Shown in pieces: positions 755-2,657 of a stretch of DNA of 32,688 bases. Made by a program: the position numbers and the translations under genes. This DNA comes from Candidatus Beckwithbacteria bacterium (GTDB lineage Bacteria; Patescibacteriota; Microgenomatia; UBA1400; UBA1449). The stretch lies in contig JAAZND010000027.1 of the NCBI GenBank assembly GCA_012798485.1, positions 1 to 32,688 on the forward strand, in the 5' to 3' direction. Within the stretch, counting starts at the first letter, position 1; the number at the start of each line of letters is the position of its first letter. The notes beneath the pieces were generated by a model, which made no database searches, was not told the origin of the DNA, and was given only the letters and a program-made list of their open reading frames with translations.

Positions 755-980
755 AAAAAACCCTTGCAGCTCACCAAAAAAAATTGGTTAGTCACAAGGG
801 CTTTCAAAAATTGAAGGCGGTGCCACCTTGTTTTATCAAATTGTCACCAATTTGAACTTAACAACCGACTCTTAAAAATGACATCGGTTTGAAGTGTGGT
901 TACGGACTTCTACCGGGAAAAACTACTCAGTGTAAACTTTTTGCCTTTCCAGCTCCAGGGCCCATTCTCCCTATCAACGC
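755..980 (-). promoter_or_regulatory. T-box riboswitch with intrinsic terminator
   Basis: Minus strand shows T-box ACAAGG-TGGCACC-GC (831..817) pairing with GC-CCTTGT, terminator CCCTTGTG...TGCAAGGG-TTTTTT, an AGTAG box, a CCGTAAC box, and 5' GCGTTGAT-AGGG-AGAATGGG-CCCT-GGAGC as Stem I with GA/K-turn. Confidence 0.9.
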
Positions 981-1017
981 TCTTCTATAAGAAATTAGAA
1001 CATAAATCAAAAAATAG

Positions 1018-1091
1018 TGTCAGAGGTGGGAGTCGGACCCACGACCTCAGCGTTATGAATGCTGTGCTCTAACCAACTGAGCTACCCTGAC
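1018..1091 (-). tRNA. tRNA with CAT anticodon (elongator Met or Ile2)
   Basis: GTCAGGG TA GCTC AGTTGGTTA GAGC A CAGCA TTCATAA CGCTG AGGTC GTGGG TCCGACT CCCAC CTCTGAC A forms a cloverleaf. CCA is not encoded. Confidence 0.93.
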
Positions 1092-1189: not shown

Positions 1190-1266
1190 TGGTAGCGGGT
1201 CCCCGGTAACGCTCCAGAGGTTAAGCGAGGTTATGAGCCTCGCGGGATACTTACCCCCCACCCGCT
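1190..1266 (-). tRNA. tRNA-Met(CAT), probable initiator, atypical
   Basis: AGCGGGT/ACCCGCT acceptor stem plus A-CCA, anticodon arm CGAGG-CTCATAA-CCTCG, short D arm and non-canonical T loop AGCGTTA. Confidence 0.82.
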
Positions 1267-1347
1267 ATATGCAAACTACGAAACAAAATATATCTTATCA
1301 AATTTACCTTTTTTAAGCAATTTTAATTTAGAGAAAAATTATAGGAT

Positions 1348-1796: not shown

Positions 1797-2657
1797 ATGG
1801 CTCTTAACCTAGATCAAACTCATCAAAACTTTTTAAACTTTCTGCAAGAAAAAGGTAGAGCTTCTGCTACTATTTTAGCATACGGTAATGATATTGAGCA
1901 GTTTTTAACTTTTCTCAAAGGAAAAAATATCAATGAAATAGAACAAGTCTCTGTTAATGATATTGAGGACTTCAAAAACCATCTTTTGCAAAATAAATAC
2001 ACTACTAAATCGGTTGCAAGAAAATTAAATTCAATCAAAACTTATTATAAATATTTAGAAAAAGAAGGTTTAATTAAAGAAAATCCTAGCCAAAAAGTTG
2101 AACATCCTAAATATATTCTCACACCTCCTAGGATTTTAACCAAAATGGAATATCGCAGTCTAAGAGATGTGGTAAGAAACGATCCTAGAATGTATGCTAT
2201 TGTAGAGCTATTTTTACAAACCGGCATTAGAATTAGCGAACTGGCAAGATTAAAACTTAAAGACATCCAAAACAACAAAATTACTATCAATGCTTATGAA
2301 TCTCATATTACTCGTACTATTCCTTTAAACAAACCAGCTCAAAATGCCATTAATGAATGGTTAATGCTTCGCACTCAAAGCGAAAATGATGAATTATTTA
2401 TTACCAAGACGGGAAAACCATTTCAAGTAAGAAATATCCGCACCTCCATGGATCGTTATTTTCGCCTGGCTGATATCAAAAATGCCACCGTTAATGATCT
2501 TAGACATACTTTTATTGCTCATCAACTTAAAGCTGGAACTCCTTTAATTTTGGTTTCAAAACTGGCTGGGCACAAAAGATTGTCTACTACAGAAAAATAT
2601 CTTGAATTCATCAAAGAAAGCAATGGGCAGGAAAACATGAAACTTGAAGCTTTATAA
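1797..2657 (+). CDS. XerC/XerD-like tyrosine recombinase
   Basis: Core-binding domain (TILAY..D, SVARKLNSIK..Y), TGIRISE, LRHTF, LAGH..STTEKY. Confidence 0.9.
   Translation: MALNLDQTHQNFLNFLQEKGRASATILAYGNDIEQFLTFLKGKNINEIEQVSVNDIEDFKNHLLQNKYTTKSVARKLNSIKTYYKYLEKEGLIKENPSQKVEHPKYILTPPRILTKMEYRSLRDVVRNDPRMYAIVELFLQTGIRISELARLKLKDIQNNKITINAYESHITRTIPLNKPAQNAINEWLMLRTQSENDELFITKTGKPFQVRNIRTSMDRYFRLADIKNATVNDLRHTFIAHQLKAGTPLILVSKLAGHKRLSTTEKYLEFIKESNGQENMKLEAL

Follow-up and report, generated by a model that had tools for sequence, protein, structure and literature searches.

The window analyzed here is the whole stretch of 32,688 nt of contig JAAZND010000027.1, from a Candidatus Beckwithbacteria genome of 1.17 Mb in 117 contigs (GCA_012798485.1). 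Near its left end, on the minus strand, two tRNA genes with the anticodon CAU are followed by a T-box leader (982-755), by the 5′ portion of a gene for an amino-acid racemase (738-264), and by the left end of an IS30-family element (263-1), within which the contig ends. The tRNA-Met (CAU, A73) at 1017-1091(-) is found by ARAGORN and by Rfam (1018-1091) and bounds the leader. The second CAU tRNA, at 1192-1272(-), is detected by ARAGORN at a relaxed threshold and is missed by default ARAGORN and by Rfam. It has an A1-U72 end pair, A73, an encoded CCA and, in the T-loop, AGCGUUA in place of the usual letters. It is kept at 88-99% identity in 11 relatives and occurs in 14 of 31 genomes, counting G000 and two genomes with split halves. 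In the latter (G024 and G007), some 225-260 nt separate the two halves, a spacing suggestive of an anticodon-loop intron. This tRNA may be the initiator tRNA, since there is no other candidate among the 37 tRNAs of the genome. Three families of the order preserve the arrangement odd CAU tRNA, tRNA-Met, Trp T-box (G026:C5, G014:C1; L115, L116). A promoter scan shows no sigma-70-like promoter in the interval from tRNA-Met to the leader; the promoter-like site nearest to it, which is also the only one on the minus strand, is at 1365-1338, upstream of both tRNAs, so that the leader may be co-transcribed with them.

The minus strand from 982 to 755 forms a complete T-box leader (Rfam RF00230), which agrees in position with a sequence-only reading that had placed a T-box at 755-980. 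In a permissive scan of 600-1300 (701 nt), RF00230 matches 986-793(-) from end to end (model positions 1-219) with 51.4 bits and an E-value of 2.8e-10; the E-value is 1.1e-10 when the whole genome is searched. The curated cut-off, a gathering score of 93, is not reached because 72 distal positions of Stem I are replaced by 4 nt. For the same reason of score, a default Rfam scan of the window lists tRNA-Met at 1018-1091 alone and no T-box. The covariance-model check thus gives a full-length match from which the distal part of Stem I is missing. At the level of sequence, the leader is confirmed as a genuine T-box RNA switch, putatively for tryptophan, with a mini Stem I and a transcription terminator.

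Stem I (982-952, minus strand as for all parts below) is ultrashort, with 31 nt from base to base; it is supported by the sequence, by the RF00230 alignment and by covariation in 10 homologues. Its letters, read correctly at the outset, are GC-GUUGA-UAGGG-AGAAUGGG-CCCUG-GA-GC at 980-952. The basal pair joins GC 980-979 with GC 953-952; a K-turn-like element places GUUGA 978-974 opposite GA 955-954, with the UGA/GA letters of a K-turn flanking the hairpin. The hairpin has 5 bp (5′ arm 973-969, 3′ arm 960-956) and an 8-nt apical loop, AGAAUGGG, at 968-961. The presumed specifier UGG (Trp) at 964-962 is followed by a purine, G961, and then by the stem, and it complements the anticodon CCA of the tRNA-Trp of the genome. 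The double T-loop motif responsible for tRNA-elbow binding is missing from this Stem I, as judged by our own regular expression for the AG bulge and the distal loop rather than by structural alignment. A longer Stem I folded farther upstream is ruled out: only 37 nt separate the base of Stem I from the end of the tRNA-Met at 1017, which leaves no room for one.

Stem II spans 951-916 in the RF00230 alignment. The letters AGUA at 927-924 align with identical letters of the Rfam Stem II consensus and, in our reading, would be the S-turn side of Stem II; a GUAG, UUAG, or CUAG motif occurs at the matching place in the 10 homologues. The Stem IIA/B pseudoknot (915-891) is made of the hairpin CGG-UAGAAGU-CCG (915-903), whose loop letters GAAGU pair with ACUUC at 895-891. 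The leaders L043 (AAAGU with ACUUU) and L044 show compensating changes in this pairing. An extra hairpin (888-864), whose letters AUGUCA...AGAGU are a motif specific to the lineage, separates the pseudoknot from Stem III; it is an insertion in the cmscan alignment, outside the Rfam consensus. The corresponding motif, (G/A)UGUC(A/G)...(A/G)GAG(C/U) with four to five complementary flanking bases, is found in 27 of the 97 leaders of the order, with long stems as well as with short ones. Stem III is at 856-836, by the RF00230 alignment and the fold.

The antiterminator (831-794, RF00230 alignment) comprises the helix ACAAGG/CCUUGU, the T-box bulge, and an inner hairpin. The bulge has 7 nt, UGGCACC at 825-819, with UGGC at 825-822. 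With the helix enforced in a constrained fold, the antiterminator has -8.1 kcal/mol, and L032 and L033 have compensating changes in the helix (GAGG with CCUC). The intrinsic terminator (804-755) consists of a hairpin at 804-761, with -21.7 kcal/mol in RNAfold, and UUUUUU at 760-755. The two structures have 804-794 in common, including CCCUUG; since the 5′ arm of the terminator contains the 3′ strand of the antiterminator, the folds are mutually exclusive. The unconstrained fold of the leader (RNAfold) leads to the terminator. The terminator call rests on RNAfold and not on a simple terminator scan, which leaves the 804-755 hairpin unlisted and lists instead a small helix inside the antiterminator. 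The RF00230 alignment, the covariation and the folds agree on the combination proposed from the letters: the specifier is apical on an ultrashort Stem I, and a classical antiterminator/terminator follows.

Given such a sensor, the control might be translational or dual, as in the actinobacterial class III T-boxes, with the hairpin and U-run being incidental. The Shine-Dalgarno sequence AGGAG (738-734) lies 17 nt past the U-run and, like the AUG (728-726), falls outside both alternative structures. Moreover, all 10 homologues retain a hairpin (-19.1 to -34.5 kcal/mol) with T4-T7 behind it despite unrelated sequences in the upper stem, and a terminator-like hairpin with a T-run is present in 73 of the 81 short-type matches of the order (see below). 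We give that reading almost no weight and retain control by transcription termination.

Nine further leaders have a loop of the form AGAAUGG(G/U). Four of them (L016, L021, L043, L044) come from the order sample and five (L032, L033, L034, L036, L039) from an exact-pattern scan, with the loop and the IIA loop, of 185,579 species genomes. The scan returned eight loci, namely the five new leaders, two repeats (L016, L021), and L037, a match in high-G+C DNA that has no T-box features and was set aside as a chance occurrence. Two of the new leaders, L032 and L033, bear the name Candidatus Dojkabacteria. The loop AGAAUGGG is identical in L016, L021, and L044, and the loop of L043 is AGAAUGGU. In the 10 leaders, the hairpin stem occurs with at least seven different sequences and is paired in all (examples are UAGGG/CCCUG, GGGG/CCCC, GUUGGG/CCCAAC, GAUAGG/CCUAUC, and AUCAGG/CCUGGU). 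The comparison uses a 38-column loop-anchored alignment in place of whole-leader MAFFT alignments, because the latter misplaced Stem I of L021 and L030 (the racemase-like ORF of L030 itself looks frameshifted and was used for its N-terminal motif alone). In this alignment, 91.7% of the cells pair versus 69.3% in shuffles, a value reached by 0 of 500 of them; as the leaders are related, the shuffle figure overstates the significance, and the control with slid registers, which pair at 16.7-53.3%, is the fairer one. Changes on both sides are seen at five of the six pairs of the Stem I hairpin. The alignment of homologous leaders proposed earlier yields a hairpin that covaries in 10 leaders.

The loop AGAAUGGG contains four triplets to be considered, UGG, AAU, AUG, and GAA. 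The identical loop stands directly upstream of trpS in L044. The genes right after L043, L044, L023, and L047 pass the NCBIfam model TIGR00233 (trpS), those of L044 and L043 with 262-268 bits against a cut-off of 176.75. The loops of L023 and L047 are AAGGUUGGG and AUGGUUGGA, and UGG is the sole triplet common to the four apical loops before a trpS confirmed in this way. Counting the window, trpS is downstream in six of the 10 leaders: directly in L043 and L044, as a later gene in L034 and L036 and as a fusion in L032 (these three by tblastn), and via contig C15 in the window. As for the other four, L016 precedes a PPDK_N-like gene and L021 a weakly TrpD-like gene, and L033 and L039 have no gene within the stretch examined. 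The bulge is UGGC in eight of the 10 leaders and UGGU in two. In this genome (ARAGORN), G73 is found in the tRNAs for Trp, Asn, Asp, Gln, and Ser, A73 in those for Met and Glu, and U73 in those for Gly, Thr, and Cys; the tRNA-Trp (CCA) is on contig C29 (6072-6143). Since the C of UGGC pairs only with G73, UGG (Trp) and, by wobble, AAU (Asn) are left among the triplets of the loop.

A genuine T-box with another specifier, AAU (Asn), AUG (Met), or GAA (Glu), is one alternative. All three triplets are within AGAAUGGG, tRNA-Asn has a G73 compatible with UGGC, and the register of the specifier is not fixed, since the presumed CGC of L022, an argH leader, is one position farther from the stem than UGG is here. 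Against it, the A73 of tRNA-Met, of the second CAU tRNA, and of tRNA-Glu does not allow pairing to the C of UGGC; a reading of AAU requires a G-U wobble with the anticodon GUU; the three triplets, unlike UGG, are not common to the four trpS-linked loops; and none of asnS, metG, or gltX is downstream of any of the 10 leaders, six of which have trpS. Such a specifier is therefore very improbable. UGG, the codon chosen in the sequence-only reading, stands as the probable specifier, with the same loop before trpS in L044, with no other triplet shared by the four trpS loops, and with trpS in the interrupted operon of the genome itself. The two further points made there, that UGGC would pair with a G73 as in tRNA-Trp and that both neighboring CAU tRNAs have A73, hold for the tRNAs of this genome.

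The gene behind the leader starts with the AGGAG and AUG given above and belongs to the Asp/Glu-racemase family (PF01177). It is a pseudogene, with a frameshift near 640 and a cut at ~264. Logan contigs from four runs, which belong to three studies, span the frameshift site and have no indel there. An intact orthologue, L080 (genome G008), passes TIGR00035 ('amino acid racemase') with 138 bits against 93; it is preceded by a short-stem leader with UGG and UGGC and is followed by a 505-aa TrpRS, with overlapping stop and start. The TrpRS of G008 (L114:155-1672(-)), whose reading frame overlaps the stop of the racemase under T-box control, is extended by ~170 aa at its N-terminus; the TrpRS of L032 forms the C-terminal portion of a protein of 862 aa. 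In the window, the racemase homology ends at 263, where the IS30-family element starts with the N-terminus of a transposase containing HTH_38 (Pfam). The left end of this element is found on 10 other contigs (98.6-100% identity) and the right end on six, so that the ends recur on 16 other contigs in all (98.4-100% identity), which explains the contig break. The element is probably the main cause of the assembly being in 117 contigs. Among the Logan contigs of the four runs, none crosses position 264 from the racemase into sequence other than the element.

The remainder of the operon is on contig C15, where the right end of the element (C15:5797-5938), the last ~60 codons of the racemase, and trpS follow each other in the same orientation; the trpS product has 68% identity to the TrpRS of L023 over all 342 residues. 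Hence, trpS of the genome itself lies behind the racemase split by the IS30 element. Because C15 carries the end of the racemase and trpS, and because G008 keeps the order intact, the ancestral unit, as reconstructed from these contigs, is leader - racemase - trpS, interrupted in this population. A Trp leader also precedes a PPDK_N-like (PEP-utilizing) protein in L016, and the gene of L021 has a sub-threshold likeness (48.5 bits) to the anthranilate phosphoribosyltransferase TrpD; both may be additional members of a Trp regulon.

With the IS30 element at ~264 separating the leader from trpS, the rest of the racemase and trpS on C15, and the frameshift near 640 invariant in the contigs of the four runs from three studies, the leader could be a decaying relic, a sensor intact in sequence that regulates nothing useful any more. 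We regard this as unlikely. All the conserved elements of the leader are intact and its loop is identical to that of its relatives; the IS copies are 98.4-100% identical, and thus the insertion is recent; and the transposase and trpS are co-directional with the leader, so that readthrough could still reach trpS. This copy may nonetheless be heading toward decay, with the operon broken by the IS30 element and the first gene a pseudogene.

The anatomy of the leader, its homologues and their covariation, the match to tRNA-Trp and the operon point to a Trp-specific T-box that acts by transcription attenuation with a sensor of the class III kind and that once controlled racemase and trpS, an interpretation in which we have high confidence. 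For tRNA binding, for what Stem II does, and for termination itself, the model is drawn from the solved class III complexes and the T-box literature. The anticodon CCA of uncharged tRNA-Trp would pair with the UGG that the K-turn-based mini Stem I displays in its 8-nt apical loop, and the S-turn of Stem II together with the stacked IIA/B pseudoknot would clamp the codon-anticodon duplex, with no contact to the elbow. According to PMC10482949, class III sensors accommodate the anticodon stem-loop in a groove flanked by Stem I and Stem II and, lacking the elbow motif, bind tRNA tightly, with an affinity about six times that of the elbow-binding ones. UGGC in the T-box bulge would then pair with GCCA, the free 3′ end of the tRNA, a pairing expected to stabilize the antiterminator, weak at -8.1 kcal/mol, in competition with the strong terminator (-21.7 kcal/mol) and to let RNA polymerase read on. 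A charged tRNA-Trp would be unable to cap the bulge, and transcription would stop at the U-run 760-755; the discriminator domain is described in PMC7778990 as rejecting aminoacylated 3′ ends. The unit under control would be the racemase gene followed by trpS, with the IS30 copy now between the leader and trpS. The review PMC7583486 calls the elbow-binding motif essential in transcriptional T-boxes, where fast association of the tRNA is important; in view of that kinetic argument, efficient co-transcriptional sensing by a short-stem design is presumptive.

In a sample of 61 genomes of the order, RF00230 matches at E ≤ 0.01 occur in 45 genomes (97 matches), with matches above the cut-off in six of 61; in a sample of the phylum, the corresponding numbers are 51 and five of 151 genomes. 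Counts across kin are not independent. With matches above the Rfam cut-off so few next to the significant ones, standard pipelines miss most T-boxes, and regulons, of the Candidate Phyla Radiation (CPR). By our own regular expression, 16 of the 97 matches fit the AG bulge and distal loop, 13 of them with a terminator-like hairpin and T-run, and 81 lack the elbow-binding motif, 73 of these (in 40 genomes) with such a hairpin and T-run. The T-box motif was not found in three of the 81 short-type matches; our own finder of K-turn hairpins, which is noisy, reports a hairpin in 53 of the 81, several of them wrong picks. By these sequence counts, the short sensor with a terminator is the majority T-box form in this order. 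The earlier view of the leader as an unusual subtype consequently stands relative to the literature and fails within the lineage.

Where the downstream gene is a recognizable aminoacyl-tRNA synthetase (Pfam), the cognate codon is found next to the stem in the apical loop: UGC before CysRS (L042), UCC before SerRS (L024), ACC before ThrRS (L050), AUC before IleRS (L025, L026, L048), GAC before AspRS (L092, L094), and GGC before GlyRS (L029, L055, L056, L066, L095). The apical loops of sister leaders have 5-10 nt. The only other T-box of the genome of the window, on contig C25 at 1976-2155(+) (L002:1501-1680), precedes a glyQS-type GlyRS gene. It has GGC-A in a tiny hairpin loop directly after an extended -10 promoter, a UGGA bulge, and then a terminator. 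In L029, L055, L056, L057, L066, and L095, there are 47-61 nt from Stem I to the bulge, which leaves no space for a long Stem I and no room for a Stem II. As read from its letters, the glyQS-type leader fits none of the four described T-box classes. The T-boxes with a long Stem I (L003, L004, L005, L007, L008, L010, L012, L014, L015, L020) mostly precede proteins of 270-375 aa without a Pfam match at E ≤ 1e-5, several of which share a motif like ...LVADQHA...; these proteins, on such sequence criteria, are an apparent uncharacterized family under T-box regulation.

Taken more broadly, and with somewhat less than even confidence, we propose that the CPR runs its whole T-box repertoire on mini Stem I sensors and terminators, that the glycine leaders drop Stem II, and that the Trp regulon includes a racemase. 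If this is true, the repertoire would cover Trp, Ile, Ser, Cys, Arg, Asp, Thr, Tyr, Val, and Gly; docking of the tRNA elbow would be dispensable for co-transcriptional sensing of tRNA; and the glycine leaders without Stem II would be the smallest natural tRNA sensors. A racemase co-transcribed with trpS in the Trp regulon of auxotrophs would suggest salvage of D-tryptophan when tRNA-Trp is uncharged; the regulon seen here links an uncharacterized amino-acid racemase to the supply of tryptophan. Short sensors combined with terminators for many amino acids would offer a natural test of the kinetic argument found in PMC7583486, and the short-stem family a test of the minimum of RNA needed for reading a tRNA.

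A full-text literature search gave no paper on a T-box in the Candidate Phyla Radiation, Patescibacteria, or Saccharibacteria. Among listings and abstracts, there was none on an ultrashort or class III T-box with a terminator, and older T-box papers may mention such leaders. Four classes of T-boxes are distinguished in PMC10482949, I and II generally acting by transcription termination, III and IV mostly on translation initiation; the structure of the ileS T-box from Nocardia farcinica (PDB 6UFM) is cited there. PMC7583486 associates a short Stem I with translational control, which can tolerate slow binding, and reviews connect such a design with isoleucine-specific T-boxes that act on translation in Actinobacteria.

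With the class III ileS T-boxes of Actinobacteria (Nocardia farcinica, Mycobacterium), the leader shares a short Stem I without the elbow-binding double T-loop, an apical-loop specifier, the K-turn, Stem II with the predicted S-turn, the IIA/B pseudoknot, and the UGGN bulge. It differs from them in its apparent output, an intrinsic terminator instead of a sequestrator of the Shine-Dalgarno sequence; in its amino acid, Trp (and many others in the sister leaders) instead of Ile before ileS; in its loop of 8 nt versus penta- or hexanucleotides; in the extra hairpin between the pseudoknot and Stem III; and in its CPR host. With class I (the type of the RF00230 seed, as in Bacillus subtilis tyrS and the Trp leaders of Firmicutes), it has in common the Stem II domain, Stem III, the antiterminator/terminator, a UGGN that covaries with the discriminator base, and the control of an aminoacyl-tRNA synthetase operon, whereas the ~70 nt of distal Stem I with the AG bulge and distal loop are absent, and the specifier is in a terminal loop instead of an internal one. 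With class II (Bacillus subtilis glyQS), the transcriptional output is common; the leader of the window has a Stem II, unlike class II, whereas the T-box of C25 is glycine-specific without Stem II, as class II is, and differs from it in that the long Stem I is missing too. On the evidence of its parts, the leader at 982-755 is thus class III in its sensor and class I in its output, with a predicted specificity for tryptophan.
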